A DNA stretch of 51,071 nucleotides from positions 1 to 51,071 of IMG/VR virus record IMGVR_UViG_3300007734_000720. One strand, written 5' to 3'. Source of the DNA: a virus. Its lineage: Duplodnaviria > Caudoviricetes. This document shows, in pieces, positions 1-51,071 of the stretch (position 1 is its first letter; each line of letters begins with the position of its first letter). The notes below the pieces were generated by a model that ran no database searches, was not told the origin of the DNA, and was given only the letters and a program-made list of their open reading frames with translations. The position numbers and the translations under genes are program-made.

Positions 1-2
1 AG

Positions 3-3000
3 GTCGGGAAAAAACTTGCGAACATTACTAGAAGCAAACTGCCCAACCTGTTGACCAGCAGCATTATTCACACGGCCAGACTTCTCCAAAGTATAAATAG
101 AGTTCTGAAGTCCTGCCATAAGACGCTGCTCAACTTCAGTATTGCCAAGAACTGCTACGGCTGCTTCGTACTCTGCCTGCAATTGAATTTGTCTTTGTGC
201 AATATTTTCCAAATGTGCAAAACCTGGACCACGAGTACCAAAAGTGCGAAGCATCTCGATACCCTCGTCAAGAGTCTTGATGCCCTGATTATAGGAACGA
301 GCAGCAGAAGATGTGCCAGCAACACGAGTACGAACAGTAGTACGACCAGAAGGAACTGGTCTGGATTCATTGTAGTACTTACCATCAATCTTACTCTTGA
401 CACGAGAAGTCTTATTGACACGAACTGTGGGGTCAAAAGCAACACCACGTTGCGTACTATTAATCATGTCCTGGACTTCTAACAAACGGTCTTCAAGTTT
501 CTTAATCGCAACAGGGTCATGTGGTTGCACTAAACCCTTAACAGAATCAAACTGAGCCTGCAAATCCGTTACAAGATTCTGCGCCTTCGTATTCGCAGAA
601 CGTGCAGCAGTACGAGCCTTCTTGTTTGACGCATTAGATGCGTCAACAGTAGTAGATATAGATTCCAAATCAGATTGCAAACGAGCAATAGCCTCTTCAC
701 TAGCAGTCATGGGTCTTGGGGGTGCGTCAACAGTCAAAGACTCAGGAAGCCGTGGAGCAAGACCAAGTAAATCGGGAGAATCCACAGTCTCAATAACACC
801 ACCAAAAGTATTAGCTTGCTCGCTAGTAAAACCATACTCAGATGTAGAACGAGCCCACTGTTCGTCACCGTACTCAACAGTCTTCAACCATCGAGCAGCA
901 GAAGATTCATCACCAGGCTTCTGATATATAGCAAAGTAACCAAGTGCTTCTCTATTGGCCTTCGTAGCCAACTCGTCACCCTGAACAAATGTTGCCTTCA
1001 TATCATCAGAAGTAATAGGACGCCAACGAACCTCAACCCATTTATCAGTAGGACTTAACTGTTGTGCACGAGCATTTCTCGCCGGCAATTTCATGCGACT
1101 CATGTCCTCTTTACGAAGATACAAACGACCAGACGCAGTACCATCGTCGTATCGACGATAGGTGCCAACATTAGAGGGTCGCACATCAGGTTCCATAACA
1201 ACTTGATTAGTAACAGAATCTATAACGTTCTTGCCATCCTGCTTCTTTGGCTTCATCCTAAGCTCAATAGACACAGGCAAACCATTAGAAGATGCAGCCT
1301 TGCGCTGAATACCAAGAGCATCTTCACGAACCTTAATCATCTGCCTAATACCATCAGACTTAATCTCAATAGTCTCAACACCCATACTGCGCATCTGTTT
1401 AAGAGTCTCAATCTCATGCAACAACTGTTCACGGGACTTTTGCTCAAAAGGAGTGTGAACAATCACATTATCAACATCATCAGCAAAACGCTTTGAGTCA
1501 TTTAAAACAACTTGAAACTTATAACTCAGAGCTTCGTCAGCCTTAGTACCAGTAAACTCATAACCAAGCCTTGCTCGAAGTTTATCTAAACTCCTGAAGT
1601 CAGCAGGAGCCTCGGGGCCAACACTAACAACATCGTTAATGGCAGCATCAACCTCGGTACCAAAACTCTTACGCTCGGCATCAATAGAAGCAGACAATTC
1701 TTCTGAACCAGTTTCCTTAAGTTTGACACGAGCAGCAGATAAATTAGAGAAAGCATCATCAAGAACAATAGGTGTGTAAACTGCATCTACAGTTGCTTGT
1801 CTAACCTCACCACGCAGGTTCGCTTGCTCTGCCTTGAGTGCATCAATATTGCCCGCAATAACCTTTTGAGCATCAGCAATCTGAACAGGAGTAGCAGACT
1901 TAACACCATCAGCAAGAACAGCAGCACCAAGTTCTTCTTGTCTCTTAAGAAGAACACGTTCACCAGAACTGCCCCAAAACTTTTCAATAATACTACGATT
2001 AGCAGACGCAGTATCAAAATTAGCAATAAACTTGCCACTGAGCGCATCTTGCTCCCTAAGATAATCAACCAGATACTGCAAAGAACGTTCATGAGATATT
2101 TTGTCAACACCATCACGAAGCAACATCTCAGGATTAGTAATGCGAAGAACGGCATCAGTATGAGCCCAATCAGTAATAGAAGAAACAATCTGACCAGCAT
2201 CTTTGTGTTGCACAAAGATGTTCCTCCAAAACTTAGAAGAAGAAAAATACGACGCCAAAGAAACATCCCCACCAAGAGATTGTGCAGCCCGCAAAGTAGG
2301 TGGGGACACACGACCACCAAAAGTCCAATCAACATTGTGTCCATTCAATTCAGAAAGAGTAATCAAAGAACTACTACGATTCTGAGCAGATTTGGCCAAA
2401 GCATATTCAGGAGACTGCATCAAAATATTAAGTTCATTCTGTGCCTCAGCAGCCGGAATAACACGCTCAACAGGCTTCTTGCCTACAGACTTCACAACGG
2501 GACGAACACGAATACTCTCATTCAAACGCACAGCAAGGTCGTTGGAAATCTTTTCCAAATCAGCAATCTGCATGTCAACACGAACAGCGTCATCAACATA
2601 CTTACCAAAGTCACGACCTTGAGAAATCAAAGCAACATTCTTTCTAAAAATATCCTGCGTAATCGAATCACCCAAATCAACACCGTAATAGGAAAACACT
2701 TCTCGCAAATGTGCTAACTCAATTGATGTCTTTTGTTGTGCAACCAAAACACGAACCTTCAACAAAGCCTCTGTGTAATCAGAAACACCCGTAGTGCCAT
2801 TCTTAACCAAATCAAGAGCAATCTGATAATCATCAGCAAGCTTGGCAGCACGAGCTGCCAAGCGAGGAGAACCAGAAGCACGACCAGCAGCAGCCTTAGA
2901 AGCCTTCTCTAAGGCAGAAACCTCGGCAGTTGTGGGAATACGCTGAGCAGGACGATTAGCCTGCAACTTAACATCATTAAGTATTTCATCAATCTTTTTA

Positions 3001-5582
3001 GCCATGCCCGGAAAACGTTCCTTAAGATGAACACGCAAAGACTCCACAACAGGGGACAAAGTAGCCATGTCACGAGAACCAGTCTCACCCAAACGAGCTA
3101 CAACACTATCAATCTGTTCCAAACTATGTACAGCCTTAGTTGGGACAATGGGTTGCCCGACACCCAACTTCCTAACAACATTAACCACTTCAGCATAAAG
3201 ACCAGATGTTTGCAAAGGAGAAGAATTGGCAAGAGGAGCAAGATATGCAGAAACCTCCATGAGTTGTTCCTGTGAACGTGCATGAAAAGCAGCGTCTTCT
3301 GTGTACTTCTCAAACTTTGTAAGAAAATCAGTAACAGCCTGATTATGCTCAGGTGATGACTCAACAGCACGAAGAGCAAGACCTTCTTCAGAAAGGTCTT
3401 TAAAACGCTTCTGCAAATTACCAGACTCTACAGCATGTTTTGCATAAACAGTAAAACCATCTGTGTCCGGCAACATGCCAGCAATAACACCATCAGCACG
3501 TACCATCTCGGCATGCTTCATAGCAGCATCAGCCATCGCTGTATTCAAATGACCCAACAACTCTGCAACATCTGCTTCACTCACGGCAGGATTCTTAAGT
3601 GCCATCAAGGCAGCATCCATGCTGCCGTACTTCAACTCAAGTTGTGACTTCAAAACATCAAGACTGTCTCGCAAACCTGAATGCAAATTCTTAATAGAAG
3701 TCAAAACCTGTTCAAATGCATGAGCAGAATTCTTGTGCATTTGCTTCAAATACTCAGGAGCAATACCAAAATAACTTTCAAAAAGTTTCACAAACTCAGG
3801 AGTCTTTTTAAACTCATTCATCATCGCCACGTTCGACATCATGTTGGCATGACCTCGAATATAAGCAGGAACAATATTCTTCATGTCGGTATCAAAAGCA
3901 TCAAAGACAGGACGACCCTCACTGCGTAACCAAGTATTGACAATCTCATTAAGATTGTCAATCGTCAAATCTTCCTTCTTTAGAATTGTGCCAAAGAATG
4001 GAGAACCTTCCTTCAAACCACGCTGCCTAAAATTACCAACAATATGCAATGCACTACCATCATCCGGCAACAAACCTGCCATAGCAGGGTCAGCCCTAAC
4101 TTCATCCATCAATTGAACAAACTGCTCAGTAGAGTTGTGCGGCAAATAACCTTTCTGATAACCAATAACATGGTCAGGAACAACAGTCTTCCAAGCTTCA
4201 TCGGTAATACCATGAAGGTCTTCCATAACAGTACGAAACTTTTGAGCCAAATCTAAATGCTCGGAAGAAAGACCAAGTTGCGCAGCCTTATCAATCATGG
4301 CCTGACCACTCTCAACATTGTCCAACAAATGTCGAACGGGATTATTCTCAGGCTTCATAACCTCTTCACGCAAAGAACCAAAACGTTGCACAGCAGCAAA
4401 GTCTGCTTCAGAAAAACCAATACGACGAATATCATCAGCATTCAAAATAACTCGTGCAAGCTGTGCTTCAGCATCACTCAAACTTCCATTCGCCAAAGCA
4501 ACACGGTATTTCTTGATAGTGCCTTCACCAAAATACTCAATAGCCCCAACACCACGAGGCGTTATAGCAGCATGCAATGACTTAATACCACTAGTATTTA
4601 CAAACCCAAGGCGAGTAGCGGTGATACCACGCTCAAGAAACTTACCAACAATATCGCTACCAGGAACCTTAACCCGACTACCAAAATAATAAACACCAGG
4701 TCCCCTAATACCAAGCTCTTTAGAAATAATCTCAGGAAGAGCTTGCTTGCCTTGCGCTGCAATATTCTTATAGGCAGATGCTATTTCTGCTTCAGAAAAA
4801 TTAGCAAGACCACTCTTAGTCATCCACTCCATGCGTTGCTGCGTAAATACAGCAAGCTTCTCTCTACCCTCACGACCAATAACAGATTTAGCAGCTGCAC
4901 GTCCAGAACCTTTAACACCAAAAACAGCCTTACGAGCAGATGTCTCAAACAAGTCATCACCCAACTTTGTGACACCAATCTTTGCCAACTGCTCTGCAGT
5001 AGCGTTCTCAACCCCACCTTCAATAAGGTGTGCAAGAGATGCGCCAGAAGTTTTAATAGTACCCTTAGCAAGAATTGTTCCACCCAAGGTAGCCCAAGTC
5101 AAAGGGTCTAAAGCCACATCACCAACTAAACCAACAATACGACCAGCCCAACCCTTCATCGGGAATGCCTTGCCAAAACCGTAATCAAACTCTTTGGTCT
5201 GATTTAAAAAATCAGAAAACGAAGCCTTCGTATTGGAGTCACTATCAACTTGGTCCACAATCTCACGGATACCAGAAATCACAGCACGACGTGGTGTATC
5301 AAGAATCTGCAATGGCATCAGCAAGTGCTTCAACGCACTTGCACCGACACCAGGCTTAGGCAGTCCAGGCAACTTGTTCTTTATGTAAGGGTTTGCATCC
5401 AACTGCAAAGACAAACTCGAAGTCACACCCTGTTGTGACAATGTTGGAACCTGTGTAAACCAAGAGGTATCAAGCTTCTTGGATACAGACGGCTTACCAA
5501 TACCACGAGACACTGGGTCTTTTGCGGCAATTGCATTCAATTGCGCAACAATGTCTACCGGCTTATTTTGCGAATTAGCCAC
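3..5582 (-). CDS. Large internal virion (DNA ejection) protein, copy A, truncated by window edge; missing from ORF track
   Basis: GTG start at 5582 reads (M)ANSQNKPVDIVAQLNAIAAKDPV, matching the N-terminus of 38320..45051; frame at the window edge matches copy B (not every codon was translated). Confidence 0.85.
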   Translation of the reverse strand, partial: MANSQNKPVDIVAQLNAIAAKDPVSRGIGKPSVSKKLDTSWFTQVPTLSQQGVTSSLSLQLDANPYIKNKLPGLPKPGVGASALKHLLMPLQILDTPRRAVISGIREIVDQVDSDSNTKASFSDFLNQTKEFDYGFGKAFPMKGWAGRIVGLVGDVALDPLTWATLGGTILAKGTIKTSGASLAHLIEGGVENATAEQLAKIGVTKLGDDLFETSARKAVFGVKGSGRAAAKSVIGREGREKLAVFTQQRMEWMTKSGLANFSEAEIASAYKNIAAQGKQALPEIISKELGIRGPGVYYFGSRVKVPGSDIVGKFLERGITATRLGFVNTSGIKSLHAAITPRGVGAIEYFGEGTIKKYRVALANGSLSDAEAQLARVILNADDIRRIGFSEADFAAVQRFGSLREEVMKPENNPVRHLLDNVESGQAMIDKAAQLGLSSEHLDLAQKFRTVMEDLHGITDEAWKTVVPDHVIGYQKGYLPHNSTEQFVQLMDEVRADPAMAGLLPDDGSALHIVGNFRQRGLKEGSPFFGTILKKEDLTIDNLNEIVNTWLRSEGRPVFDAFDTDMKNIVPAYIRGHANMMSNVAMMNEFKKTPEFVKLFESYFGIAPEYLKQMHKNSAHAFEQVLTSIKNLHSGLRDSLDVLKSQLELKYGSMDAALMALKNPAVSEADVAELLGHLNTAMADAAMKHAEMVRADGVIAGMLPDTDGFTVYAKHAVESGNLQKRFKDLSEEGLALRAVESSPEHNQAVTDFLTKFEKYTEDAAFHARSQEQLMEVSAYLAPLANSSPLQTSGLYAEVVNVVRKLGVGQPIVPTKAVHSLEQIDSVVARLGETGSRDMATLSPVVESLRVHLKERFPGMAKKIDEILNDVKLQANRPAQRIPTTAEVSALEKASKAAAGRASGSPRLAARAAKLADDYQIALDLVKNGTTGVSDYTEALLKVRVLVAQQKTSIELAHLREVFSYYGVDLGDSITQDIFRKNVALISQGRDFGKYVDDAVRVDMQIADLEKISNDLAVRLNESIRVRPVVKSVGKKPVERVIPAAEAQNELNILMQSPEYALAKSAQNRSSSLITLSELNGHNVDWTFGGRVSPPTLRAAQSLGGDVSLASYFSSSKFWRNIFVQHKDAGQIVSSITDWAHTDAVLRITNPEMLLRDGVDKISHERSLQYLVDYLREQDALSGKFIANFDTASANRSIIEKFWGSSGERVLLKRQEELGAAVLADGVKSATPVQIADAQKVIAGNIDALKAEQANLRGEVRQATVDAVYTPIVLDDAFSNLSAARVKLKETGSEELSASIDAERKSFGTEVDAAINDVVSVGPEAPADFRSLDKLRARLGYEFTGTKADEALSYKFQVVLNDSKRFADDVDNVIVHTPFEQKSREQLLHEIETLKQMRSMGVETIEIKSDGIRQMIKVREDALGIQRKAASSNGLPVSIELRMKPKKQDGKNVIDSVTNQVVMEPDVRPSNVGTYRRYDDGTASGRLYLRKEDMSRMKLPARNARAQQLSPTDKWVEVRWRPITSDDMKATFVQGDELATKANREALGYFAIYQKPGDESSAARWLKTVEYGDEQWARSTSEYGFTSEQANTFGGVIETVDSPDLLGLAPRLPESLTVDAPPRPMTASEEAIARLQSDLESISTTVDASNASNKKARTAARSANTKAQNLVTDLQAQFDSVKGLVQPHDPVAIKKLEDRLLEVQDMINSTQRGVAFDPTVRVNKTSRVKSKIDGKYYNESRPVPSGRTTVRTRVAGTSSAARSYNQGIKTLDEGIEMLRTFGTRGPGFAHLENIAQRQIQLQAEYEAAVAVLGNTEVEQRLMAGLQNSIYTLEKSGRVNNAAGQQVGQFASSNVRKFFPD

Positions 5583-6576
5583 TCTTCGTTGAACGCTTCA
5601 ACATAGCATTTCTCATGATGTCGGTCTTCAAAGGAGTAGAACCCTGTTGCTGCAAAGAAGAAAGTATTTGAGAAGCAAGGTCAAATGCTTGTTGCTGTGT
5701 ATTAGCACCACTGCCCTCTTTGCGGTCTGCATAAGCATTAATAGCATTGGCACGTGAACGATTCTCAGAACTAAGACGCTCGTCTTTAATATCCGCACCC
5801 TTTAAGGCAAGAAAATCCTTTGCTGCCTGGTCCTTGGCCCTACCAACAGGGGCACCAGGCATTTGAATTCTAGAATTCAGCAATTTCATAAACCAATTAC
5901 GCTGAGATTGTTCATTCGCATGTTGTTTCTCTTTACCCATAACATCCTGAATTGCTTTGTTCTCCAAATACTTCTTCTTGTCAACATCACTCGTAAGAAA
6001 AACATCACCAAATTTAGCAGCAATATTCTGACGCCTAGTAGCGTCAGAAGAAAGCTGAGCGGGAAGATTAGCAGTAAGGTCAGCAAATTGCTGAGGAGCA
6101 TACTGCATGGCTTCAGCACCAAACTTCAAAGTACCATCTGAGTTCATGTCAGTATAATTCTCATTAGCACCACGCATACCAGCCTTCTGAAACACATCCT
6201 GTTGCATACTTTGGTCAAGCATTGCCTTCTGAACAACCTGATGTTCATCAGCCAAAGTATTGACAAAAGATTTCCAATCTTCAGGACTCATGCCAGATTG
6301 TGGTTGCAAATCTTTTGCATTCCACAACTGCCAGGCAGGAGTGCCAGACTTAATTCGAGCAGCAGCAATAGCATGAGGAGATGAAGAACCCAAAGAAACG
6401 GCAGACGCAGTCGTAGGGGCATTGCGCTGATACAACTGGTCAAGAGTAAAAGAAGGTGCAGACTGAAAAGTACCATTAAGATACTGCATGACAGGGTCCA
6501 TCGTGTTCGACGAAAAGTCAGACCCACCCTTGCTAGCAATCATTGCTGCAATCAAATCGGAATACGGGTCAGCCAT
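5575..6576 (-). CDS. Putative internal virion/ejection protein, copy A (333 aa)
   Basis: Ala/Gln-rich helical protein upstream of the giant virion gene; homolog at 45044..46285. Confidence 0.7.
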   Translation of the reverse strand: MADPYSDLIAAMIASKGGSDFSSNTMDPVMQYLNGTFQSAPSFTLDQLYQRNAPTTASAVSLGSSSPHAIAAARIKSGTPAWQLWNAKDLQPQSGMSPEDWKSFVNTLADEHQVVQKAMLDQSMQQDVFQKAGMRGANENYTDMNSDGTLKFGAEAMQYAPQQFADLTANLPAQLSSDATRRQNIAAKFGDVFLTSDVDKKKYLENKAIQDVMGKEKQHANEQSQRNWFMKLLNSRIQMPGAPVGRAKDQAAKDFLALKGADIKDERLSSENRSRANAINAYADRKEGSGANTQQQAFDLASQILSSLQQQGSTPLKTDIMRNAMLKRSTKSG

Positions 6577-6597
6577 ACTAATTAGTCCTTTTGTTCC
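6577..6597 (-). promoter_or_regulatory. Putative late promoter box
   Basis: GGAAC-AAAAGGACT-AATTAGT-ATG on the minus strand. Confidence 0.6.
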
Positions 6598-7812
6598 CTA
6601 GAACGCGCCAGCCAAAGCGGGAAATTTCTTCTTAGCTGCAGCCATAGTTGTAAACTTATAATTTGGATTCAGGTCTGCCAAAGCAGCCTTAAAGTTTGGA
6701 TAATTATCTGGTGCCGCAGCAACCTGCTCTGCACGAGATGTAGCACTACCCGCAACAACCGGTTGAGCATTTGCACCAGCACCAGCAGTAGAACCATCAA
6801 CTGCACCACCAGCAGCAATAATAGCTTCCTCAAGAGCAGTCTTCTTCTCACCAACACCCTGTTCAACACCATAACGTGCCTGGTTAATCTGGTCCATCAA
6901 TTGATTCATTGCACTTGCTCGTGCGGTATCAGCATTGGCTTGATATGCAGCACGTTGAGAACCCAATCCAGTTGTTGCATAATTCTGCGCCATTTGTGAC
7001 ACATCAAGATTCGACCGATTATTTGACAACTGATTGGCAGACATCAATTGTTGCAACTGATTGTACGAATCAGCACCTTGCTGATTCGCCATCTGTGAAG
7101 CCTGAACCTGCTGATTCACGGGGTCATTGGAAACACCATAAGCACTCAAATAATTAGCCATAGCATTATTCACAGGACTTACCTGCTGTTGCAAGTTGGC
7201 GTAAGGATTACTCTGGTTAGCTGTCAAATACTTATTCAAATCACCATAACCAGTATTCACCATGCCCTGCGCCATGTCATAACCAGCATTAATATTACTA
7301 ATACCAGTATTGTAATTGTCCCAAATAGAAGCCTGACCTTGTGTATTCTGGTCATTGATAAGACCAAGCAACGTGTCAGCGTTGCCACGATACCCACCAG
7401 AAGCAAGACGACCCTGTAAACCCTGCAAAGCACGAAGTTGAGTATCAGTAGTATTCTTCGCAGCAGCCTGCTCAGCGTTCCACTTGGCCCAATCAAGAGA
7501 ACTGTCCTTGCTACCAGAACCCCCAGAACCACCACCCTGTAGCATCTTCGTCAAACCAGCAATACCACCATAAGCAACAAAAGGGTCTGCCTGTACAGGA
7601 GGCTTAATAGATGGCTGATTATATCTATTAGCTAAATTATAAGCATCATTCTGTGCCTTAGTACCAGAACTATAATCGTATGGTATTTGTCCAAGAGCAG
7701 CAGTACCAACCAAACTCTCAACACGGTCACGTCGGTCTGCCGTACGAGGAGCATTCTGTATCTTAGCAGAAGCACCATTTACCCAATCGTAAGTATTTAC
7801 ACCTGTTGCCAT
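6598..7812 (-). CDS. Putative internal virion/ejection protein, copy A (404 aa)
   Basis: A/Q/N/G-rich, typical of podovirus pilot proteins; homolog at 46307..47632. Confidence 0.7.
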   Translation of the reverse strand: MATGVNTYDWVNGASAKIQNAPRTADRRDRVESLVGTAALGQIPYDYSSGTKAQNDAYNLANRYNQPSIKPPVQADPFVAYGGIAGLTKMLQGGGSGGSGSKDSSLDWAKWNAEQAAAKNTTDTQLRALQGLQGRLASGGYRGNADTLLGLINDQNTQGQASIWDNYNTGISNINAGYDMAQGMVNTGYGDLNKYLTANQSNPYANLQQQVSPVNNAMANYLSAYGVSNDPVNQQVQASQMANQQGADSYNQLQQLMSANQLSNNRSNLDVSQMAQNYATTGLGSQRAAYQANADTARASAMNQLMDQINQARYGVEQGVGEKKTALEEAIIAAGGAVDGSTAGAGANAQPVVAGSATSRAEQVAAAPDNYPNFKAALADLNPNYKFTTMAAAKKKFPALAGAF

Positions 7813-10310: not shown

Positions 10311-10312
10311 GA

Positions 10313-11226: not shown

Positions 11227-11247
11227 ACCAATAGGGCAAAATGTTAC
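11227..11247 (-). promoter_or_regulatory. Putative late promoter box
   Basis: GTAAC-ATTTTGCCC-TATTGGT-ATG; no Shine-Dalgarno. Confidence 0.65.
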
Positions 11248-11251
11248 CTAC

Positions 11252-17010: not shown

Positions 17011-17032
17011 AACTATTAAGACAATTCGTTAC
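17011..17032 (-). promoter_or_regulatory. Putative late promoter box
   Basis: GTAAC-GAATTGTCT-TAATAGT-T-ATG. Confidence 0.6.
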
Positions 17033-29113: not shown

Positions 29114-29114
29114 C

Positions 29115-41300: not shown

Positions 41301-44300
41301 GCTCCGACTTAAGTACATCAATATTTCCTACAATAACCTTTTGAGCATCAGCAATCTGAACAGGAGTAGCAGACTTAACACCATTACCAAGAACAGCAGC
41401 AGCAAGTTCTTCTTGTCTCTTAAGAAGAATACGTTCGCCAGAACTACCCCAAAACTTTTCAATAATACTCCGATTAGCAGATGCAGTATCATGACTCGCA
41501 ATCAAAACACCACTAAGAGCATCTTGCTGTCGAAGATAATCAACCAAATAATGCAAAGAACGCTCGTAAGATATTTTGTCAACACCATCACGAACCAGCA
41601 TCTCAGGATTAGTAATACGCAAAACTGCTTCCGTATGCGCCCAATCAGTAATAGAGGTAACAATCTGACCAACCTCTTCATGTTGAACAAAAATGTTTCT
41701 CCAAAACTTAGCCGAAGGAATCGTCAAAGGAACATCTCCACCAAGAGACTGCGCAGCACGCAAAGTAGGTGGAGCCACGCGACCGCCAAAAGTCCAATCA
41801 ACATTGTGTCCATTTAATTCGGAAAGGATAATCAAAGAAGCACTACGATTATGAGCAGACTTAGCCAAAGAATACTCAGGAGACTGCATCAAAATATTAA
41901 GGTCATTCTGTGCCTGAGCAACAGGAATAACAGGCTCAGGAAGCCTCTTGCCAACAGGTGTAGGAACAGAACGCACACGAACACTCTCATTCAAACGCAC
42001 AGCCAAATCATTGGAAATCTTTTCCAAATCAGCAATCTCCATCTCAACGCGAACGCCATCATCAACATACTTACCAAAATCACGACCTTTAGAAATCAAA
42101 GTAACATTCTTCTTAAAAATATCCTGCGTAATCGAATCACCCAAATCAACTCCATAGTAAGCAAACACTTCTCGCAAGTGTGCTAACTCAATTGATGTCT
42201 TTTGTTGTGCAACCAAAACACGAACCTTCAACAAAGACTCTGTATAATCGGAAGAACGAGTAATACTATTCTTAACCAAGTCAAGAGCAATCTGATAATC
42301 ATCAGAAAGCTTGGCAGCACGAGCTGCCAAACGAGGGGAAACAGAAGCACGAGCTGCAGCGGCCTTAGAAGCCTTCTCTAAAGCAGAAACCTCAGCAGTA
42401 GTAGGAACACGCTGAGCAGGACGCTTGGCAGTAGCCACAACATCATTGAGTATCTCATCAATCTTGTCAGCCATGCCCGGAAAACGTTCCTTCAAGTGAA
42501 CACGCAAAGACTCAACCACAGGAGACAAGGTAGCAATGTCACGAGAACCAGTCTCACCCAAACGAGCCACAACACTGTCAATCTGTTCCAAACTATGTAC
42601 AGCCTTTGTCGGAATGACAGGTTGACCAACACCCAACTTCCTGACAACATTAATAACTTCTGCGTAAAGACTATCTTTCGACAAAGCAGAAAAATTAGCA
42701 AGAGGAGAAAGATATGCAGAAACATCCATAAGTTGTTCCTGTGAACGTGCATGAAAAGCAGCGTCCTCTGTGTACTTCTCAAACTTCGTAAGAAACTCAG
42801 CAACAGCCTGATTGTGCTCAGGTGATGACTCAGCAGCACGAAGAGCAAGACCTTCTTCGGAAAGGTCTTTGAAACGCTTCTGTAAATTACCAGACTCAAC
42901 AGCATGTTTAGCGTAAACAGTAAAACCATCTGTGTCTGGCAACATGCCAGCAATAACACCATCAGCACGTACCATTTCAGCATGCTTCATCGCGGCATCA
43001 GCCATCGCTGTATTCAGATAACCCAACAGCTCAGCAACATCTGCTTCACTCACAGCGGGATTCTTGAGTGCAATCAAAGCAGCATCCATACTGCCATACT
43101 TCAATTCAAGCTGTGACTTCAAAACATCAAGAGCTTCTCGTAAACCAGAATGCAAATTCTGAATAGCAGTCAAAACCGCCTCAAACGCATGAGCAGAATT
43201 CTTGTGCATCTGTTTTATATATTCAGGTGCAATACCAAAATAACCTTCAACTAATTTCACAAACTCAGGAGTCTTTTTAAACTCATTCATCATGGCAACA
43301 TTAGACATCATGTTTGCATGACCACGAATATAAGCAGGAACAATATTCCTCATGTCAGTATCAAAAGCATCAAAAACAGGACGACCCTGACTACGCAACC
43401 AAGTATTGACAATTTCATTCAAATTGTCAATAGTCAAATCTTCTTGTCTAAGAATTGTATTAAAGAATGAAGAACCCTCCTTTAAACCACGTTGCCTAAA
43501 GTTACCAACAATGTGCAATGCGCTGCCATCATCCGGCAACAAACCAGCCATAGCGGGATTAGTCCTAACTTCGTCCATCAACTCAACAAACTGCGGAGTA
43601 GAGTTATGCGGTAAATAACCTTTCTGATAACCAATAACATGGTCGGGAACAACAGTCTGCCATGCTTCATCAGTAACCTGATGAAGCTCTTCCATAACAG
43701 TACGAAACCGTTGAGCCAAATCCAAATGCTCAGGAGAAAGACCAAGTTGCGCAGCCTTGTCAATCATCGCCTGACCACTCTCAACATTGTCTAACAAATG
43801 TCGAACAGGGTTATTCTCTGGCTTCATAACCTCTTCACGCAACTGACCCAAACGCTGAACAGCTGCAAAATCTGCTTCGGAAAAACCAATACGACGAATA
43901 TCATCGGCATTCAAAATAACTCGTGCAAGCTGTGCCTGCTCATCTGACAAAGAACCATTAGCCAAAGCAACACGATACTTCTTAATAGTACCTTCACCAA
44001 AGTACTCAATAGCACCAACACCACGAGGTGTTATCGCACGATGCAAAGCATCAATACCCTTAGTCTGAACAAAACCAAGACGAGTACGAGTGATACCACG
44101 CTCAAGAAACTTACCAACTACATCACTACCGGGAACTTTAACACGACTCCCAAAATAATAAACACCAGGTCCCTTAATACCAAGTTCCTTGGCAATAATG
44201 TCTGGAACATTTTGTTTACCCTGCAAAGCAATATTGCGATACGCAGATGCTATTTCTTCTTTGGAAAAATTAGCAAGACCAGTCTTGGTCATCCATTCCA

Positions 44301-45051
44301 TACGTTGCTGCGTAAAAACAGCAAGCTTCTCTCTACCCTCACGACCAATAACACTCTTTGCAGCAGCACGACCAGAACCCTTAACACCAAACAAAGCCCT
44401 GCGAGCAGAAGTCTCATAAAGGTCTTCACCCAACTTAGTAACACCAACCTTGGCTAACTGTTCAGCAGAAGCCTTCTCAACACCACCCTCAATCAAATGA
44501 GAAAGTTGAGAACCAGACAATCTAATAGTACCTTTAGCGGCAATTGTGCCACCCAAAGTAGCCCAAGTCAAAGGGTCTAATGCAACATCTCCAACTAAAC
44601 CAACAATACGACCAGCCCAACCCTTCATTGGAAACGCCTTGCCAAAACCATAATCAAACTGTTTTGTCTGATTCAAAAAATCCCCAAACGAAGCTTTCGT
44701 ATTAGGGTCACTATCCATTGTGTCAACAATTTCACGAATACCAGAAATCACAGCACGACGTGGTGTATCAAGAATCTGTAAAGGCATAAGCAAATGCTTT
44801 AACGCACTTGCATCAGCACTAGGCTTGGGTAAAGATGGCAAAGACTTCTTTATGTAAGGATTAGCATCCAATTGTGCAAGCAAATTAGATGTCTGACCTT
44901 GAGACGCAAGAGGAGAACTCTTGGTCAACCAAGAAACGTCGGGCTGCACAGCAGCACGACGCTTAACAGACAACTGAGACACTGGGTCTTTTGCAGCAAT
45001 TGCATCCAATTGTGCAACAATGTCAATCGGCTTTCCTGCAGGGTTAGCCAT
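38320..45051 (-). CDS. Large internal virion (DNA ejection) protein, copy B (2243 aa)
   Basis: GLVGDVALDPLTW N-region and PGFHVRN...FDY...VPFW C-region typical of podoviral giant core proteins. Confidence 0.8.
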   Translation of the reverse strand: MANPAGKPIDIVAQLDAIAAKDPVSQLSVKRRAAVQPDVSWLTKSSPLASQGQTSNLLAQLDANPYIKKSLPSLPKPSADASALKHLLMPLQILDTPRRAVISGIREIVDTMDSDPNTKASFGDFLNQTKQFDYGFGKAFPMKGWAGRIVGLVGDVALDPLTWATLGGTIAAKGTIRLSGSQLSHLIEGGVEKASAEQLAKVGVTKLGEDLYETSARRALFGVKGSGRAAAKSVIGREGREKLAVFTQQRMEWMTKTGLANFSKEEIASAYRNIALQGKQNVPDIIAKELGIKGPGVYYFGSRVKVPGSDVVGKFLERGITRTRLGFVQTKGIDALHRAITPRGVGAIEYFGEGTIKKYRVALANGSLSDEQAQLARVILNADDIRRIGFSEADFAAVQRLGQLREEVMKPENNPVRHLLDNVESGQAMIDKAAQLGLSPEHLDLAQRFRTVMEELHQVTDEAWQTVVPDHVIGYQKGYLPHNSTPQFVELMDEVRTNPAMAGLLPDDGSALHIVGNFRQRGLKEGSSFFNTILRQEDLTIDNLNEIVNTWLRSQGRPVFDAFDTDMRNIVPAYIRGHANMMSNVAMMNEFKKTPEFVKLVEGYFGIAPEYIKQMHKNSAHAFEAVLTAIQNLHSGLREALDVLKSQLELKYGSMDAALIALKNPAVSEADVAELLGYLNTAMADAAMKHAEMVRADGVIAGMLPDTDGFTVYAKHAVESGNLQKRFKDLSEEGLALRAAESSPEHNQAVAEFLTKFEKYTEDAAFHARSQEQLMDVSAYLSPLANFSALSKDSLYAEVINVVRKLGVGQPVIPTKAVHSLEQIDSVVARLGETGSRDIATLSPVVESLRVHLKERFPGMADKIDEILNDVVATAKRPAQRVPTTAEVSALEKASKAAAARASVSPRLAARAAKLSDDYQIALDLVKNSITRSSDYTESLLKVRVLVAQQKTSIELAHLREVFAYYGVDLGDSITQDIFKKNVTLISKGRDFGKYVDDGVRVEMEIADLEKISNDLAVRLNESVRVRSVPTPVGKRLPEPVIPVAQAQNDLNILMQSPEYSLAKSAHNRSASLIILSELNGHNVDWTFGGRVAPPTLRAAQSLGGDVPLTIPSAKFWRNIFVQHEEVGQIVTSITDWAHTEAVLRITNPEMLVRDGVDKISYERSLHYLVDYLRQQDALSGVLIASHDTASANRSIIEKFWGSSGERILLKRQEELAAAVLGNGVKSATPVQIADAQKVIVGNIDVLKSEQANLRGEVRQATVDAVYTPTVLDDAFSKLSIIQAELKKNNLEELAASVETERRSFGTEVDAAINDVVVVGPEGPVDSRGLDKLRARLGYEFTGTNPDEAVSYKFQVELANAKRFADDVDNIIVHTPFEQKSREQLLHEIETLKQMRSMGVETTEIKSDGIRQMIRVREDALGIQRKSASSNGLPVSLELRMKPKKVKGQNVIDPATNQVVMVPDVRPSDVGTYRRYDDGTSSGRLFLRKEDMTLMNPRARFARARQTNGRWVEVRWRPITPDDMKATFVVNDAAATKANREALGYLAVYQNPFDETSPVRWLKTVEYGDEQWARSTSEYGFTSEVANNFGGVIQTVDSPDLLGLVPRLPESLTVVPPPKPMTASEEAIARLQSDLESISVTVDASNASTEKARAAARSANTKAQNLVTDLQAQFDSVKGLVQPHDPVAIKKLEDRLLEVRDMINSTQRGVAFDPTVRVNKTSRVKSKIDGKYYNQSRPVPSGRTTVRTRVAGTSFSARSYNQGVKTLDEGIEMLRTFGTRGPGFSHLENIAQRQIQLQAEYEAAVAVLGNTEVEQRLMAGLQNSIYTLEKSGRVNNAAGQQVGQFASSNVRKFFPDLEEGWQYLSKGIYGAEGVKGDYGIYPGLAGSPEFAELWNRAKRFDDPEYLRQMHKYVGSYTKFFKAYATMTPGFHVRNGLANAVKLVFMGAEFKNMMEATPLYIDWMKSSRAGMQFEDWVLTKPFEVREVLRTARKSMFGSGGGIFTEDFKDAVGGSRLWDNKLVRFNAKWGQESDNYSRFVLGFDSAKSGMDVGMAQARTKRAFFDYEDLSQVDEVMRQVVPFWLWTSRNLIFELQNQWLNPKPYQIYRSIMRNMRDPNYEPSEYPSPFVREIGGIKLPFGDNLYLAPDLGFTRTPQQLGELFSPLRYTNNMNPLLKIPLEQFLGKSVFTGNTLDDPKERLIHILKGFVPPVQMGDRLIGSEGDAAKNAWLSFVGSPVRTYQTKEK

Positions 45052-46285
45052 GCTTTGTTGAACGCTTCAACATAGCGTTTTTCATGATGTCAGTCTTCAA
45101 AGGAGTAACACCCTGCTGTGCCAAAGAAGCAAGAACTTGTGCAGCAAGTTCTGCTGCTTGACGCTGTGTAGTAACAGCACTGCCCTGTTTGCGGTCCATA
45201 TAAGCATTAATAGCGTTCGCATCCGAACGCCCAATAGCACTCGCCATCTTGTTCTCCATAGGAGCAGAACCTTGCAACTTAAGCAACTGCTGAGCGTCCT
45301 GCATAGCAGCACTACTCTGGTTACGAGGATTATTGGCACCAATAGAAGTTGCAACCCTATCCACCAATGGCTTAAAACCAAGCCATTGACTGAAAGGACG
45401 ACGAACAAGACTTTCCAACATAACAGTCGCAATATCGGGATTATCCGAACCCTTAGCAAATGGATTAAAAGTACTCCAAGTCGGCTTAGAACCGTTGAAC
45501 CAAGGAACACTCTTACCGTTAGCGTAAGAATAATTATCCCCAGCACCGCGAACCTTGGGATTCTCATACGAAACAACCATCTTGTCGGTCAATGGGTCAC
45601 GAGACCAAATCTGCTTACCCTTAACCTTTTCACGCTCCGTACTATCGCGTTTAGCCAAAGACTCATTATAAAGCATATTCAAAATCTTATCCTTATCAGT
45701 CTCAACAACAGGAGCACCATACTTTGCATCAACAGACTTGCGTCTAGCAACATCACTGGCAAGTTGAGCAGGAAGATTAGCAAGCAATTGGTCAAACTGC
45801 TTAGGAGCAAACTGATAAGCATCCGAAGCATAAGTCTGAGTACCATCTGGATTCATGTCAGTGTAAGAAGCATTGGCACCACGCATACCAGCCTTCTGAA
45901 ATACATCTTGTTGCAGACTCTGGTCAAGCATTGCTTTCTTAACGGTCTGTTGCTCAGTAGCCAAATCGTTGATAAACGATTTCCATTCTTCAGGACTCAT
46001 ACCTGACTGTTGTTGCAAGTTCTTGTCACGCCACAACTCCCAAGGAGCCTGACCCGACTTGATGCGAGCAGCAGCAATAGCATGGGGAGAAGTCTCACCA
46101 AGCGCAGCAGCAGACATAAAAGTAGGAGCAGTGCGCTCATACAATTGATTAATGTCAAACTGCGGAGCCTGCTGATAAGAACCATTCAAATATTGCATAA
46201 CAGGGTCCATCGTGTTCGATGAAAAGTCAGAACCGCCCTTGCTAGCAATCAATGCAGCAATCATGTCGCTATACGGGTCAGCCAT
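45044..46285 (-). CDS. Putative internal virion protein, copy B (413 aa)
   Basis: Homolog of 5575..6576 with a different central segment. Confidence 0.7.
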   Translation of the reverse strand: MADPYSDMIAALIASKGGSDFSSNTMDPVMQYLNGSYQQAPQFDINQLYERTAPTFMSAAALGETSPHAIAAARIKSGQAPWELWRDKNLQQQSGMSPEEWKSFINDLATEQQTVKKAMLDQSLQQDVFQKAGMRGANASYTDMNPDGTQTYASDAYQFAPKQFDQLLANLPAQLASDVARRKSVDAKYGAPVVETDKDKILNMLYNESLAKRDSTEREKVKGKQIWSRDPLTDKMVVSYENPKVRGAGDNYSYANGKSVPWFNGSKPTWSTFNPFAKGSDNPDIATVMLESLVRRPFSQWLGFKPLVDRVATSIGANNPRNQSSAAMQDAQQLLKLQGSAPMENKMASAIGRSDANAINAYMDRKQGSAVTTQRQAAELAAQVLASLAQQGVTPLKTDIMKNAMLKRSTKHG

Positions 46286-46306
46286 ACTAATTAGTCCTTT
46301 TGTTAC
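46286..46306 (-). promoter_or_regulatory. Putative late promoter box
   Basis: GTAAC-AAAAGGACT-AATTAGT-ATG (GGAAC in copy A). Confidence 0.6.
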
Positions 46307-47632
46307 TTAAAACGCTTTAGCCAAAGCAGGAAATTTCTTTTTAGCTGCAGCCATTGTTGTGAACTTATAATTAGGATTTAAATCTGCCAAAGCAGTCTTA
46401 AAATTAGGATAATTGTCAGGTGCTGCAGCAATCTGCTGTGCACGAGCAGAAGCACTACCCTCAACAGGCTTTTGACCATTATCCCCAGAACCAGCAGCAG
46501 CAGGACCAGTATCAACACGTCCTGTATCTGGATTGACATCCGCAGCGGTAGCACTAGTACTACCACCAGCAGCAATAATAGCTTCCTCAAGTGCATTCTT
46601 TCGAGTACCAACATCCTGCTCAACACCATAACGAGCAGTATTAATCTGGTCCATCAACTGATTCATAGCACTTCTACGTGCAGCATCAGCATTCGCCTGA
46701 TAACCAGCACGTTGTGAACCCAAACCAGTGGTTGCGTAATTCTGTGCCATCTGTGACAAACCAAGATTCGACTGATTGTTTGACAACTGATTAGCAGACA
46801 TCAACTGTTGCAACTGATTAAACGAATCAGCACCTTGCTGATTCGCCATCTGTGAAGCCTGAACCTGCTGATTAACGGGGTCATTGGAAACACCATAAGC
46901 ACTCAAATAATTAGCCATAGCGTTATTCACAGGACTTGACTGCTGTTGAATATTCGCATAAGGGTTAATTTGATTAGCGCCAAGATAACTATTCAAATCA
47001 CCATAACCACTATTAACCATTCCCTGAGCAGTGTCATATCCAGCATTAATGTCACTAATACCAGTATTATAATTATCCCAAATCGCAGCCTGACCCTGTG
47101 TGTTGTTGTTGTCAATCAAACCCAACAAAGTGTCAGCGTTACCACGATATCCACCAGAAGCCAAACGACCCTGCAAACCCTGCAAAGCACGAAGTTGAGT
47201 GTCAGTAGTATTCTTCGCAGCAGACTGCTCAGCGTTCCACTTAGCCCAATCCAAAGCAGTATCCTTAGAAGAAGTACCACTAGTGCCACCACCCTGAAGC
47301 GCCTTGACAAAACCAGCAAGACCACCATAAGCAGCATAAGGGTCTACAGCACCAGCCTGTGGTCCAGCCTGATTGTACATATTAGCTTTGTCATAAGCAT
47401 AATTCTGTGCTGTTGTACCAGCTTCATAATTGTATGGAGTTTGACCAGCAGCGGCGGTTGTAACCAAACTACCAACTCGTCCAGCACGGTCAGCAGTCCT
47501 AGGACGATTTTCCGGCCGAGCAGAAGCACCATTTACCCAATCATAAGTACTAACACCCAATGTCGGAGGAACAGATGCAACAACCTTATTGCCCTTTTTG
47601 GCCGCGTTATTCGTAATACTATCTGCACTCAT
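46307..47632 (-). CDS. Putative internal virion protein, copy B (441 aa)
   Basis: Homolog of 6598..7812 with N-terminal extension. Confidence 0.7.
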   Translation of the reverse strand: MSADSITNNAAKKGNKVVASVPPTLGVSTYDWVNGASARPENRPRTADRAGRVGSLVTTAAAGQTPYNYEAGTTAQNYAYDKANMYNQAGPQAGAVDPYAAYGGLAGFVKALQGGGTSGTSSKDTALDWAKWNAEQSAAKNTTDTQLRALQGLQGRLASGGYRGNADTLLGLIDNNNTQGQAAIWDNYNTGISDINAGYDTAQGMVNSGYGDLNSYLGANQINPYANIQQQSSPVNNAMANYLSAYGVSNDPVNQQVQASQMANQQGADSFNQLQQLMSANQLSNNQSNLGLSQMAQNYATTGLGSQRAGYQANADAARRSAMNQLMDQINTARYGVEQDVGTRKNALEEAIIAAGGSTSATAADVNPDTGRVDTGPAAAGSGDNGQKPVEGSASARAQQIAAAPDNYPNFKTALADLNPNYKFTTMAAAKKKFPALAKAF

Positions 47633-48066
47633 GCATATGCTCCTGCTCTGTATTGCATTATCTGTCCTGCATCCTCAGCAATCTGCTGAGCCTTCTGCTG
47701 CTGTATAACAGTCTTGTCAGCAGCAAGCTGAGCCTGACGCTCACCCAAATCACTCTGATAAAAAGCATTGCTAGTGTCAAGCGCACCTTGCGCTTGACCG
47801 GTTTTGTCAACACGGTCTTTAGCAAAATCCTGCATTGCAGAAGCAAAAGCACCACTCTTCACATTCGCAGTATTACGTCCACTACGACCATAACCAGCCA
47901 CCAACTGTGGAGCTTGTTTATCATACTGCGCACCAACATCAACCATTGCACGACGTGCATTCTGATTCAATATCTGATTGTCGTATAAAGCACGACTACT
48001 CTGAGTATTAAACCCACTAATCAAAGCCTGCAACTTAGCTGCGTATTCTGCTGGATTAAATGCCAT
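47629..48066 (-). CDS. Putative small internal virion protein, copy B (145 aa)
   Basis: Homolog of 7812..8249. Confidence 0.7.
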   Translation of the reverse strand: MAFNPAEYAAKLQALISGFNTQSSRALYDNQILNQNARRAMVDVGAQYDKQAPQLVAGYGRSGRNTANVKSGAFASAMQDFAKDRVDKTGQAQGALDTSNAFYQSDLGERQAQLAADKTVIQQQKAQQIAEDAGQIMQYRAGAYA

Positions 48067-48239
48067 TAGAAATTACCTTTGTACAAATTGTTTGTTTTGG
48101 GAATAGGACGACTCTTCAATTGCTCAATATCTTTACGCATAGAATCAATTGCCTGAATCAATGCAGAAACAATCACACGAATAGCAACAGCATCCGAAGA
48201 ATTGAGTGTCGTTACAGCAGGAATTGATAGTGGTTCCAT
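48066..48239 (-). CDS. Small coiled-coil protein, copy B (57 aa), missing from ORF track
   Basis: MEPLSIPAVTTLNSSDAVAIRVIVSALIQAIDSMRKDIEQLK... Confidence 0.8.
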   Translation of the reverse strand: MEPLSIPAVTTLNSSDAVAIRVIVSALIQAIDSMRKDIEQLKSRPIPKTNNLYKGNF

Positions 48240-48478
48240 CATGAGAATATCGATGTCCCCAAAACAATCTGGTCACTGTCACCAGTCACAGGACTAGCCA
48301 ACTTAATAGAAGTAATTGCACCATCGGCAATAGCAGCAGTCTGAATTGCTCCAGCAGTAAAATTTGTGCCTGCTTGTAATGCATCAACAAAGTTTTTAAC
48401 AGCAGTAAAGTTGCCGTTAGCCTCAGAGGCTTCAGCAATGGTTGCATCAACAAATGTATTTGGAATAGTTAGAGCCAT
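48239..48478 (-). CDS. Short tail-fibre anchor-like protein, copy B (79 aa)
   Basis: Homolog of 8422..8703, 14 aa shorter; ends DQIVLGTSIFS. Confidence 0.6.
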   Translation of the reverse strand: MALTIPNTFVDATIAEASEANGNFTAVKNFVDALQAGTNFTAGAIQTAAIADGAITSIKLASPVTGDSDQIVLGTSIFS

Positions 48479-50085
48479 TATCCAGTAACCTTTCGATTGT
48501 TATATTTATAGGCAATACTGTCAATGCCCCATTCGCCACCAGTCGGACCGGTAAACAACAATTGCACACATCGTGCCAATCCAAGATTAGCTCCACGACG
48601 AACCTCAGCACCTTGAGCAATTACACCCCAAGTACCACTTCCCCAAAGCATTGTTCCCCACTGTCCACCGCTAGCAGAAGCAGGAAGAACAATATCAATA
48701 CTCTTACGTTCGTTGCCAGTCGCTTCTTCAAAATTATGAAACACTTTAATGTTTAATGTGCGCTGCGTGTCCACCTGCTTAAGAACAAAATCTGGTCTAC
48801 GCCACATCTTCTTCATTGAGTAATTGTTTCCATCAACCCAACCCGTGCGATAATACGTTGCAAAATTTGCTTCTGTTTGGCTAATAAAATCTGTCTCAGA
48901 AGAAAACACTTCTACCTCCAACACTCTTGGGAGTGTTGGATGTGCAAGCACGGGTACGCTTACGCCAGCAGTTGTTTTGAAATCTGCTCCACCCACAAGA
49001 CCATAATCATCTGCAGATGACAACCTATTCCAAGAACCATTCCGACCAATACTCGGGTCGTAAACCAAATTGGTAGTTACCTCTGTGGCAGCGACACCAG
49101 TCGAATAAGGGACAGCAAGCCACACCCTGCGATTAACGTAAGACACACTTATCTTGCTACTATAGTTATTGTTAATGTATCCAAGTGGATACATAGCCTT
49201 AAGGTTCTGAAACAAGTCAACAACCGTGTTTCCGTTATAGTAAAATAATCCTTTGAACCCAACATAAAAATACACACCCTGTTCAGAAGATGCAATATGG
49301 GTTGGAAAGTCTACACCAAGGTTGGTTGATAATTCAACAACCTGATGGTCAGTTGAGTCATAGCCAAACAAAACATAGATTGCCTGTGGCTTAAATACAA
49401 CCAAATGTCCAGCAACAACAGCAAGACCAGTAATACCGTCACCACCACCATTAAAATCAAGATAGTCAGCAAAAAGCCAATCCTCTGGCAAACCTTCATG
49501 AGACCAACGCAAACGGTTTGGATAAGATGTTCCATCTTCTTTTGTGTTTGCAACAAACATTTTGTTTGTATGCTGAATAACATGTTCTGCTTTAGGAAAA
49601 TATCCACCTACAGGACTTACATAAGCCTGCCAGGTTGGTGCACTTACAGTCAATGCAGTAGCATAAGTGTCAGTAACCTTCCACTTATATGTTGCAACAC
49701 CAGTCTTGCCAGTTGTCATATACATCGTGTCACCCCATTGAGCCAACGATGAACCACTTGTGCTTGCAGACACAATAGGTGTACCAGAACCAAAATCTAA
49801 ACGGGTAAAGTTTGTACCCGTACCTTGATACACGGATGTTTCCGTAGTTAACATCAAATACTGTGACGAGCCCTTAAACCATGTAAGACGCTTTGGAGCC
49901 CAGGTACCCGACACAGCCGTTGAGTTAATCTCCCTAAACGCTCCACGACTAAACAAACCGCCACGAGGGTCAATCTCAACATTCAACATGTCGGGAGATT
50001 CATTCTTAGACAACTGAAACTGGTCTGCCCTAAGGTTCAGACCACCAGTAAAATCGTCGTATCGTTCAATAACTAATTGTGGCAT
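48478..50085 (-). CDS. Tail nozzle / tubular protein B-like, copy B
   Basis: Homolog of 8703..10310; start MPQL at 50085 (TAATG). Confidence 0.75.
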   Translation of the reverse strand: MPQLVIERYDDFTGGLNLRADQFQLSKNESPDMLNVEIDPRGGLFSRGAFREINSTAVSGTWAPKRLTWFKGSSQYLMLTTETSVYQGTGTNFTRLDFGSGTPIVSASTSGSSLAQWGDTMYMTTGKTGVATYKWKVTDTYATALTVSAPTWQAYVSPVGGYFPKAEHVIQHTNKMFVANTKEDGTSYPNRLRWSHEGLPEDWLFADYLDFNGGGDGITGLAVVAGHLVVFKPQAIYVLFGYDSTDHQVVELSTNLGVDFPTHIASSEQGVYFYVGFKGLFYYNGNTVVDLFQNLKAMYPLGYINNNYSSKISVSYVNRRVWLAVPYSTGVAATEVTTNLVYDPSIGRNGSWNRLSSADDYGLVGGADFKTTAGVSVPVLAHPTLPRVLEVEVFSSETDFISQTEANFATYYRTGWVDGNNYSMKKMWRRPDFVLKQVDTQRTLNIKVFHNFEEATGNERKSIDIVLPASASGGQWGTMLWGSGTWGVIAQGAEVRRGANLGLARCVQLLFTGPTGGEWGIDSIAYKYNNRKVTG

Positions 50086-50774
50086 TACAGCGTCCTGCCA
50101 AGAGTCTGTAACCAACGCTTCATCGTTGGGTACTGTCGTCCACCGGACATCACAACAGGCTGTGCACTCGATGCCTTCATCAAGTCACGGCGAGCAAATG
50201 CAACACCCTCTTCAAAAGACTTCATATACATGTTCGCAAGCTCAGAGTCCTCTTGACGCTGATACACACGAGCAAGAACAAAATACGGCAAAATAGCATG
50301 GAACCATTCATCAAGGTCGATGTTCTCGGTAATGTCGCTCAACCAGGTATAAACGGGATTACGAAAAGCACGAACGGTCATTGGATACACAATGTCCGGT
50401 TTAGCCCACAACCATATCTGTTTGTCCCAAAAACTATAAAAGTATGGTCGGCTGGCAACATCCAAGTTGCCCAACCAAATGCTCTCAGCATCGTTGTAAT
50501 CAATTAAGGTAAGTCTTGCACCCTGAGTTGATGTGTCCACAACAGAGATGATTTCTCGAATATCCCCGATTGTAGATATTGTGTACTGACGCTGATTAGC
50601 AACCGTGTTAAATGTGTATGTTTCTTGCAGAATCGGCCAACGGCGTTCCAACGCATAAATGCGTTGAAAGCCTTCACGGGCAAACTGGTCAATAACAGCG
50701 TTAGACAAATCGTTTTCATCAAGGTCAGCCATATCTCTGACCTGTGAACGCAATGTTGTAAGCGTTATTGCCAT
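50085..50774 (-). CDS. Head-tail adaptor-like protein, copy B
   Basis: Homolog of 10313..11011. Confidence 0.7.
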   Translation of the reverse strand: MAITLTTLRSQVRDMADLDENDLSNAVIDQFAREGFQRIYALERRWPILQETYTFNTVANQRQYTISTIGDIREIISVVDTSTQGARLTLIDYNDAESIWLGNLDVASRPYFYSFWDKQIWLWAKPDIVYPMTVRAFRNPVYTWLSDITENIDLDEWFHAILPYFVLARVYQRQEDSELANMYMKSFEEGVAFARRDLMKASSAQPVVMSGGRQYPTMKRWLQTLGRTL

Positions 50775-50989
50775 TAAGCCTGACCCCTATTTCTTAGATG
50801 TCCGATACAGAAATCTGTCCCACGGGCTTTAGGACCCTCACATGTATCATCGTTGGCTGTGCAACGGTTACGCCCGATGTACGGACCTGATGGAGCAGCA
50901 AGGCGTGCGCCTTCTGCATGGGCAAGACGGGAGTGCTTAGTAGTTGGCTCCCCGTATAAAGTATGAGCAAGTTTCGCCGATTGGTTCAT
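50774..50989 (-). CDS. Small Cys/His protein, copy B
   Basis: Homolog of 11011..11226. Confidence 0.75.
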   Translation of the reverse strand: MNQSAKLAHTLYGEPTTKHSRLAHAEGARLAAPSGPYIGRNRCTANDDTCEGPKARGTDFCIGHLRNRGQA

Positions 50990-51010
50990 ACCAATAGGCG
51001 GAATTGTTAC
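50990..51010 (-). promoter_or_regulatory. Putative late promoter box
   Basis: GTAAC-AATTCCGCC-TATTGGT-ATG; boxes conserved and spacer diverged relative to copy A. Confidence 0.65.
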
Positions 51011-51014
51011 CTAC

Positions 51015-51071
51015 TTAATACTTTGAACCCCTCAAAGGTGTTTTCTTTTTTGGTGCAAACTTACCTGCTTG
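51015..51071 (-). CDS. C-terminal end of basic protein, copy B (partial)
   Basis: QAGKFAPKKKTPLRGSKY* versus QAGKYAPKKKAPAKGSKY* in copy A. Confidence 0.8.
   Translation of the reverse strand, partial: QAGKFAPKKKTPLRGSKY

Follow-up and report, generated by a model that had tools for sequence, protein, structure and literature searches.

A 51-kb phage record in IMG/VR with two diverged copies of its tail/ejection module: very probably an assembly chimera of co-occurring strains

The IMG/VR virus record IMGVR_UViG_3300007734_000720 (Duplodnaviria; Caudoviricetes) is a single, N-free contig of 51,071 bases, and the stretch analyzed here, referred to below as the window, covers the whole of it. 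A tail/ejection module at the start of the window (copy A) is found a second time at its end (copy B). Self-BLAST aligned the two copies in three direct, collinear matches, all with E = 0: 1-5760 with 39482-45229 (85.4% identity), 6006-7803 with 45715-47557 (77.9%) and 7814-11308 with 47631-51071 (78.7%). The period of this repeat is 39,481 bp, and the duplicated block spans 22% of the contig and 29% of one unit. No further internal repeats were reported by self-BLAST of the window, and the backbone between the two modules is without a second copy. What is repeated is an 11.6-kb segment at the distal end of a block of structural genes, extending from within a gene for a giant virion protein to just beyond the gene for a 71-amino acid (aa) protein. 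Both ends of the contig cut genes, as the frame of the giant gene runs off base 1 and the contig ends in the 3' part of a homolog of a gene for a 151-aa protein. The genes of the two copies, as delimited by self-BLAST and open reading frames (ORFs), are given here, with the family names in copy A taken from the B copies:

1-11308, minus strand: copy A of the tail/ejection module
3-5582, minus strand: copy A giant virion protein, cut by the contig start
5575-6576, minus strand: copy A 333-aa protein
6598-7812, minus strand: copy A 404-aa protein
7812-8249, minus strand: copy A 145-aa protein
8422-8703, minus strand: copy A 93-aa protein
8703-10310, minus strand: copy A 535-aa virion structural protein
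10313-11011, minus strand: copy A 232-aa structural protein
11011-11226, minus strand: copy A 71-aa protein, followed by the 3' end of the 151-aa gene
39482-51071, minus strand: copy B of the tail/ejection module, beginning with the 5' 5.6 kb of the complete giant gene
38320-45051, minus strand: complete giant gene, 2243 aa
45044-46285, minus strand: copy B 413-aa protein
46307-47632, minus strand: copy B 441-aa protein
47629-48066, minus strand: copy B 145-aa protein
48239-48478, minus strand: copy B 79-aa protein
48478-50115, minus strand: copy B 545-aa virion structural protein
50085-50774, minus strand: copy B 229-aa structural protein
50774-50989, minus strand: copy B 71-aa protein, 82 bases past whose start the contig stops

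The divergence between copies A and B is real and under purifying selection, and represents neither sequencing error nor an identical terminal repeat. All eight gene pairs are open in both copies, and their ratios of non-synonymous to synonymous substitution (dN/dS) range from 0.06 to 0.45, with dS values of 0.31-1.11. Differences in the aligned codons are concentrated at the third position (526, 371, and 1132 at positions 1, 2, and 3, respectively; 2029 in total). Within the first 60 bases there are differences at 6, 12, 18, 42, and 60, all at third codon positions of the minus-strand frame 3-5582. The 145-aa proteins are 89.0% identical, with 16 differences, and the 71-aa proteins 94.4% identical, with four. 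An earlier note on this DNA, made from the sequence alone, had reported that 1-11308 recurs in the same gene order but in non-identical form, had given these five nucleotide differences and these two residue counts, and had proposed that the frames were intact and under purifying selection; on each of these points our analyses agree with it.

The gene pair that has diverged most is that encoding the 333-aa and 413-aa proteins, which have only 61.6% aa identity and the dN/dS value of 0.45. Their 80-residue difference in length lies toward the C-terminal end, and a stretch of the 333-aa gene (5761-6005, minus strand) could not be aligned to its counterpart in the 413-aa gene (45230-45714). Neither protein had a Pfam or PHROG match, and we consider the pair a candidate receptor-binding protein based on its position and behavior. 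At the other extreme, the longest identical run between the copies is 113 bases (11123-11235 and 50886-50998), against a background of 78-85% identity. This run spans the start and first 35 codons of the gene for the 71-aa protein, a small cysteine-containing protein, and the same stretch is also the best conserved at the nucleotide level in those relatives that align there (0.90-0.96). It may represent a recombination tract or a constraint at the nucleotide level.

To place the period of 39,481 bp in context we used relatives of this phage. A search of IMG/VR with TerL identified 321 related stretches, and the largest contig among the best 80 of these was 43.9 kb. Ten near-complete IMG/VR records (G001-G010, at loci L088-L099 and L262-L272; rated by CheckV as 91-100% complete) have lengths of 36.4-43.9 kb, and in the seven of them with one simple end overlap the unit is 37.0-41.0 kb after overlap removal. 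Exactly one unit of the window aligns collinearly with G001, whose tail genes are nearer to copy B. The 545-aa protein is encoded once per record in five of five relatives, as is the major capsid protein (MCP), end overlaps aside, and no second tail/ejection module was found in the ten near-complete relatives. Because each gene tested has one copy in the relatives, whose units are ~37-41 kb, the window corresponds to 1.29 units, and the 39,481-bp period is one genome unit, as the earlier note had supposed for a period of about 39.5 kb.

Further evidence on the two modules comes from public sequencing runs. Sampled words of the copy A region 1-10000 were present at 0.95-0.99 in runs X1-X5, drawn from two studies; two further runs had values of 0.76 and 0.50. 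We aligned Logan contigs of X1, X3, X5, and X6 to window positions 31072-51071. All four of these runs have copy A words at 0.76-0.99, and all four have contigs of the copy B module with 0-1 other letters that cover parts of the module. Both variants occur in the same sequenced runs. The backbone contigs of X1 match the window with 0-1 differences over 31072-39352. Runs with 0.25-0.39 of the copy A words are labeled as riverine or freshwater metagenomes.

The joint between copy A and the backbone was found in a single bridging contig. This contig, which aligns to 38888-39588 and is the same in X3 and X5, has no differences from the window over 38888-39456 (569 bases) and nine other letters at or after 39457. 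Within 39482-39588, which corresponds to 1-107 of the window, it has the copy A letter at seven of the seven positions at which A and B differ (at 39487-39556), and it also carries letters not found in the window at 39457 and 39460. Copy A is preceded by the same backbone end as copy B. A-type sequence continues upstream of base 1 of the window, which is therefore no physical end of the molecule, and the giant gene of A is complete in nature. Variant A joins the backbone on both sides, the right side being in the window and the left side in the bridging contig. The first difference between A-type and B-type sequence, at 39457 inside the giant gene, has at least 569 identical bases upstream of it and ~90% identity downstream. 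We interpret 39457 as a recombination boundary, and not as the edge of a conserved domain, because G001 shows little conservation in this part of the giant gene (33-51% aa identity). The C-terminal ~379 residues of the giant protein would be common to both strains, with 14% difference elsewhere, the identity being seen only over 38888-39456.

A module similar to that of strain A also occurs in a contig from another sample (L258; 25,523 bases, of which 11,656 were seen), which is 95.6% identical across 277-8457. The start of strain A matched only four loci in the IMG/VR scan, at 84-87% aa identity. Other contigs in the runs showed consistent loose ends, where they leave the sequence of the window at 51029 (X5) and at 36083-36162 (X1, X3, X5, and X6). 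These suggest that the module end has three alleles or more and that the backbone varies near 36.1 kb. One joint in X5 runs from 50662 to 39404 with a single intervening letter, at a low depth of 3.6 and with loose ends at 39424 and 50644. It probably represents two ~20-base matches in an unrelated contig, the window being without a repeat there, and it was not used. Bins of depth 0 were seen over many parts of the B module in X1, a run that holds 0.99 of the copy A words, and over 37742-39742 in X6, and we drew no conclusion from these.

Wrapping of a contig past its own start is not limited to the window. Imperfect end overlaps, from 208 bp to ~4.4 kb at 76-99.6% identity, are present in seven of the ten relatives, and these records are classed as "linear":

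G002: overlap of 208 bp, 99.5% identity
G005: overlap of 239 bp, 95.0% identity
G003: overlap of 253 bp, 99.6% identity
G001: overlap of 329 bp, 98.5% identity
G007: overlap of 428 bp, 95.8% identity
G006 (40.2 kb): overlap of ~1240 bp, 89.5% identity
G004 (43.9 kb): overlap of ~4.4 kb, 76-93% identity
G008: perfect overlap of 123 bp
G009 and G010: no end overlap

The overlaps sit in differing genes, including the 545-aa gene, the giant gene, the MCP gene, and the region upstream of TerL. Such scattered positions argue for an assembly process, since a biological duplication would recur at one place, while a wrap-around from strain to strain may stop anywhere. The codon phase of the differences in the overlaps was periodic in G007 (12 of 18 in one phase) and mixed in G004, G005, and G006, in which several frames are involved. 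We regard G004 and G006 as smaller versions of the artefact in the window at other genome positions; the window is the longest wrap-around in this small sample.

Based on these findings, we consider it highly probable that the record arose as an assembly chimera from two co-occurring strains, which have part or all of the backbone in common and differ in the 11.6-kb tail/ejection module. This is also the explanation that the earlier note had judged most likely, and it is supported by the presence of both variants in the same runs, by the joining of A to the core end, and by the wrapping of the relatives. At least two strains of one ~39.5-kb phage, with a circular or circularly permuted map, would co-occur. 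They are identical over at least the 569 backbone bases at 38888-39456, and presumably over much more of the backbone, and differ by 15-22% over the block of tail, internal virion, and ejection genes, from ~39457 to past the 71-aa gene. The assembly graph would then form a circle with one large bubble, through which the assembler would have followed the A branch, the shared backbone and, at the fork, the B branch, that of A being already used, with a linear contig of 1.29 units as the outcome. No single molecule would carry A, backbone and B, and the B branch would also rejoin the start of the backbone. The tandem, whether as a real molecule or as a new genome architecture, most likely does not exist.

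Depths in the runs, which are per-contig means summed over aligned contigs and not copy numbers, provide a hint at most. Among the contigs listed, those of the backbone were deeper than those of B in X1 (7-10 vs. 2.9-3.5), X3 (15-20 vs. 5-6), and X5 (57 vs. 11-18), which is a weak hint in favor of the chimera reading. Several observations weigh against the chimera reading. In X6 the backbone does not exceed B in depth, and the bridging contig has 1.5-1.6 times the depth of the B contigs (8.5 vs. 5-6 in X3, and 25.3 vs. 11-18 in X5). The latter would fit roughly equal amounts of A and B, because the bridging contig is mostly shared sequence, and a tandem would also give equality. Variant B joins the backbone on its left side in the window, and its right-side join (51071 to 11309) is absent from the contigs compared. 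Neither IMG/VR nor the metagenome collection yielded a contig identical to B: the best match to the B 229-aa protein had 95% aa identity in the IMG/VR scan, an exact 35-base pattern from the window end had no IMG/VR matches, and in the metagenome collection the best full-length match to this protein was 95% identical, with a partial contig (L250) at 97% aa and 94.4% nucleotide identity. The first base of the contig lies 25 bases past the first A/B difference, and at the far end identity to copy A is limited to the last 13 bases; these ends are off the clean boundaries of a bubble and do not fit a simple de Bruijn-graph unitig. Lastly, the Logan contigs are short, and a strain mixture and a concatemer of A and B units look alike in them, which leaves some chance of a physical linkage of A and B.

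That linkage is the basis of the alternative that survives best, in which co-infection was followed by replication and recombination that joined A and B units into a natural hetero-concatemer or hetero-tandem, a molecule that would probably be transient. We assign this only a small chance. In its favor, A and B co-occur in all four runs compared, recombination between these strains is evident from the sharp boundary at 39457, and short-read data cannot tell a concatemer from a mixture. In addition, the genome has genes for an exonuclease and for a RusA-like resolvase, and the ratio of bridging contig to B depth is alike in X3 and X5, which is compatible with roughly equal amounts. However, nothing in the data demands such a molecule, as a plain mixture yields the same contig, and seven of ten relatives' contigs wrap imperfectly, with positions and lengths that bear no relation to one another, a pattern that points to assembly. 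A molecule of 51 or 79 kb would exceed the 37-41-kb unit, yet A and B are both found in viral-metagenome runs (X3 and X6), where whole concatemers would not be expected since they are not likely to be packaged. In X3, moreover, the backbone contigs listed (15-20) have greater depth than the bridging contig (8.5), a weak indication that the backbone is common to additional strains. That the contig itself represents a real hetero-concatemer, or a stable hetero-tandem from co-infection, with A and B modules flanking one backbone, has in our view a slim chance. If true, the record would be a metagenomic snapshot of a mixed infection and of a recombination intermediate swapping host-range modules, with the boundary at 39457 as its product.

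A second alternative is that A and B contigs were fused after assembly, by scaffolding, by multi-sample co-assembly, or by approximate merging of end overlaps. The position of the contig ends off exact bubble boundaries would be explained in this way, and the runs that hold A come from two studies. Against it, the window is N-free, and the X1 backbone contigs (0-1 differences, 31072-39352) indicate that one sample can supply the whole backbone. The chance of such a join is very slim, and it is a variant of the chimera reading and not a separate biological claim. Finally, a genuine 51-kb genome with two modules, which the earlier note had listed as a novel possibility along with the natural hetero-concatemer, and in which the diverged modules would be paralogs or diverged long terminal repeats, is contradicted by the data and almost certainly wrong: both copies are intact and under purifying selection, but the A giant gene that is cut at base 1 continues in X3 and X5 into sequence identical to 38888-39456, none of the ten near-complete relatives has a second module, and the copies are 78-85% alike, unlike the identical repeats of concatemer packaging, with no features of tandem prophages.

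Two specific forms of duplication were considered and rejected. Terminal repeats that arise from concatemer packaging are copied from one template and hence are identical. True direct terminal repeats do not fit the window, in which the copies are 78-85% identical with a longest identical run of 113 bases, and A continues upstream of base 1. Tandem prophages were rejected as the record consists of phage genes end to end, no tRNA was found in the window, and no integrase family was detected at E ≤ 0.001 in a PHROGs scan of 46 distinct ORFs, with ~17 of the 63 candidates outside the scan. The ORFs outside the scan are mostly <100 aa, and the longest among them are the 535-, 232-, and 93-aa proteins of module A.

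The remainder of the window has structural genes on the minus strand and early genes on the plus strand:

11309-39481: single-copy backbone
12452-13387, minus strand: MCP
13412-14200, minus strand: scaffold-like protein
14243-16114, minus strand: portal protein
17032-18624, minus strand: TerL
20516-21136, minus strand: 2OG-Fe(II) oxygenase
22727-23128: 133-aa protein that matches repeat parts of tail-fiber families
24139-37872, plus strand: early/replication block
30630-30893, plus strand: WhiB-like gene (phrog_472, E = 4.8e-17)
32605-33438, plus strand: exonuclease
33860-34894, plus strand: DnaB-like helicase
34824-35783, plus strand: primase
35780-36142, plus strand: RusA-like gene
36742-37131, plus strand: small sigma-factor-like protein
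37802-38320: 172-aa gene (sub-threshold Pfam Peptidase_M15_4)
38320-39481: 3' end of the giant gene, which completes the backbone

The minus-strand structural block also holds a weak small-terminase-like gene and a DNA-binding protein. Between TerL and the early genes, 19047-23128 encodes a 498-aa protein (sub-threshold PA14), the 2OG-Fe(II) oxygenase, and the 133-aa protein with tail-fiber repeats. No Pfam match was found for the giant protein, the 333/413-aa pair, the 404/441-aa pair, or the 151-aa protein. The 2243-aa giant protein, to which one sixth of the genome is devoted, matched no Pfam or PHROG family at the thresholds applied; based on its position it may be an internal virion or ejection protein. 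The WhiB-like regulator and the small sigma-factor-like protein point to an actinobacterial host, and on the basis of the WhiB-like gene we expect that the host is probably an actinobacterium. Cultured phages gave no megablast match to window positions 1-25000, and the best MCP match among 50,697 phage records was only 40.8% identical.

Consequently, the record should not be read as that of a 51-kb phage with duplicated tail genes, a reading that inflates the size of the genome by 29% and includes eight of its genes two times. A diverged wrap-around of this kind would escape exact-repeat and k-mer checks, as illustrated by the mean k-mer frequency of 1.02 (k = 20-21) and by the 31-mers common to both copies, which number 296 of 11,278. 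As seven of ten relatives are classed as "linear" and have imperfect overlaps, circularity is under-called in this phage group and some sequence is duplicated. The underlying biology is familiar, with co-occurring strains that have an identical backbone where compared, a swapped tail/ejection module with 15-22% divergence, and a sharp boundary in the giant gene.

There is a parallel to a true mixed molecule in phage T4, in which terminal-redundancy heterozygotes carry different parental alleles at their two redundant ends after mixed infection. The redundancy in T4 is a few percent of the genome and involves single markers, whereas in the window it is 29% of a unit with 15-22% divergence, in a molecule that would be hypothetical. 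Closer counterparts are found among known assembly products. The CheckV paper notes, in its treatment of genome copies, that assemblers sometimes concatenate them, and that contigs were removed if a duplication covered 20% or more of their length (Nayfach et al., 2020, PMC8116208). Like the IMG/VR contigs flagged there, the window exceeds the expected genome (1.29-fold) and has a block present twice in direct order, over 22% of the contig. Unlike them, as far as that treatment describes them, its copies are 78-85% identical and belong to two strains, as opposed to a single genome that was read two times, and a duplication filter based on exact k-mers would likely pass this record.

In the sections of the Phables (PMC10104058) and COBRA (PMC10914622) papers on assembly, variant phage genomes are described as sharing unitigs, with chimeras arising during assembly. 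The strains in the window resemble such variants in that they co-occur and share unitigs, and in that the unitigs unique to each are functional modules, which assemblers cannot phase. The cases described in those sections are of fragmentation or of bins with multiple variants, and a single contig that wraps one variant's module into that of another is not among them. The COBRA paper (PMC10914622) also includes, in its part on freshwater metagenomes, phages of Actinobacteria that encode whiB, and the WhiB-like gene of the window is a feature in common with these. It differs from them in that its host is deduced from the genes of the window, and it has no close cultured phage.

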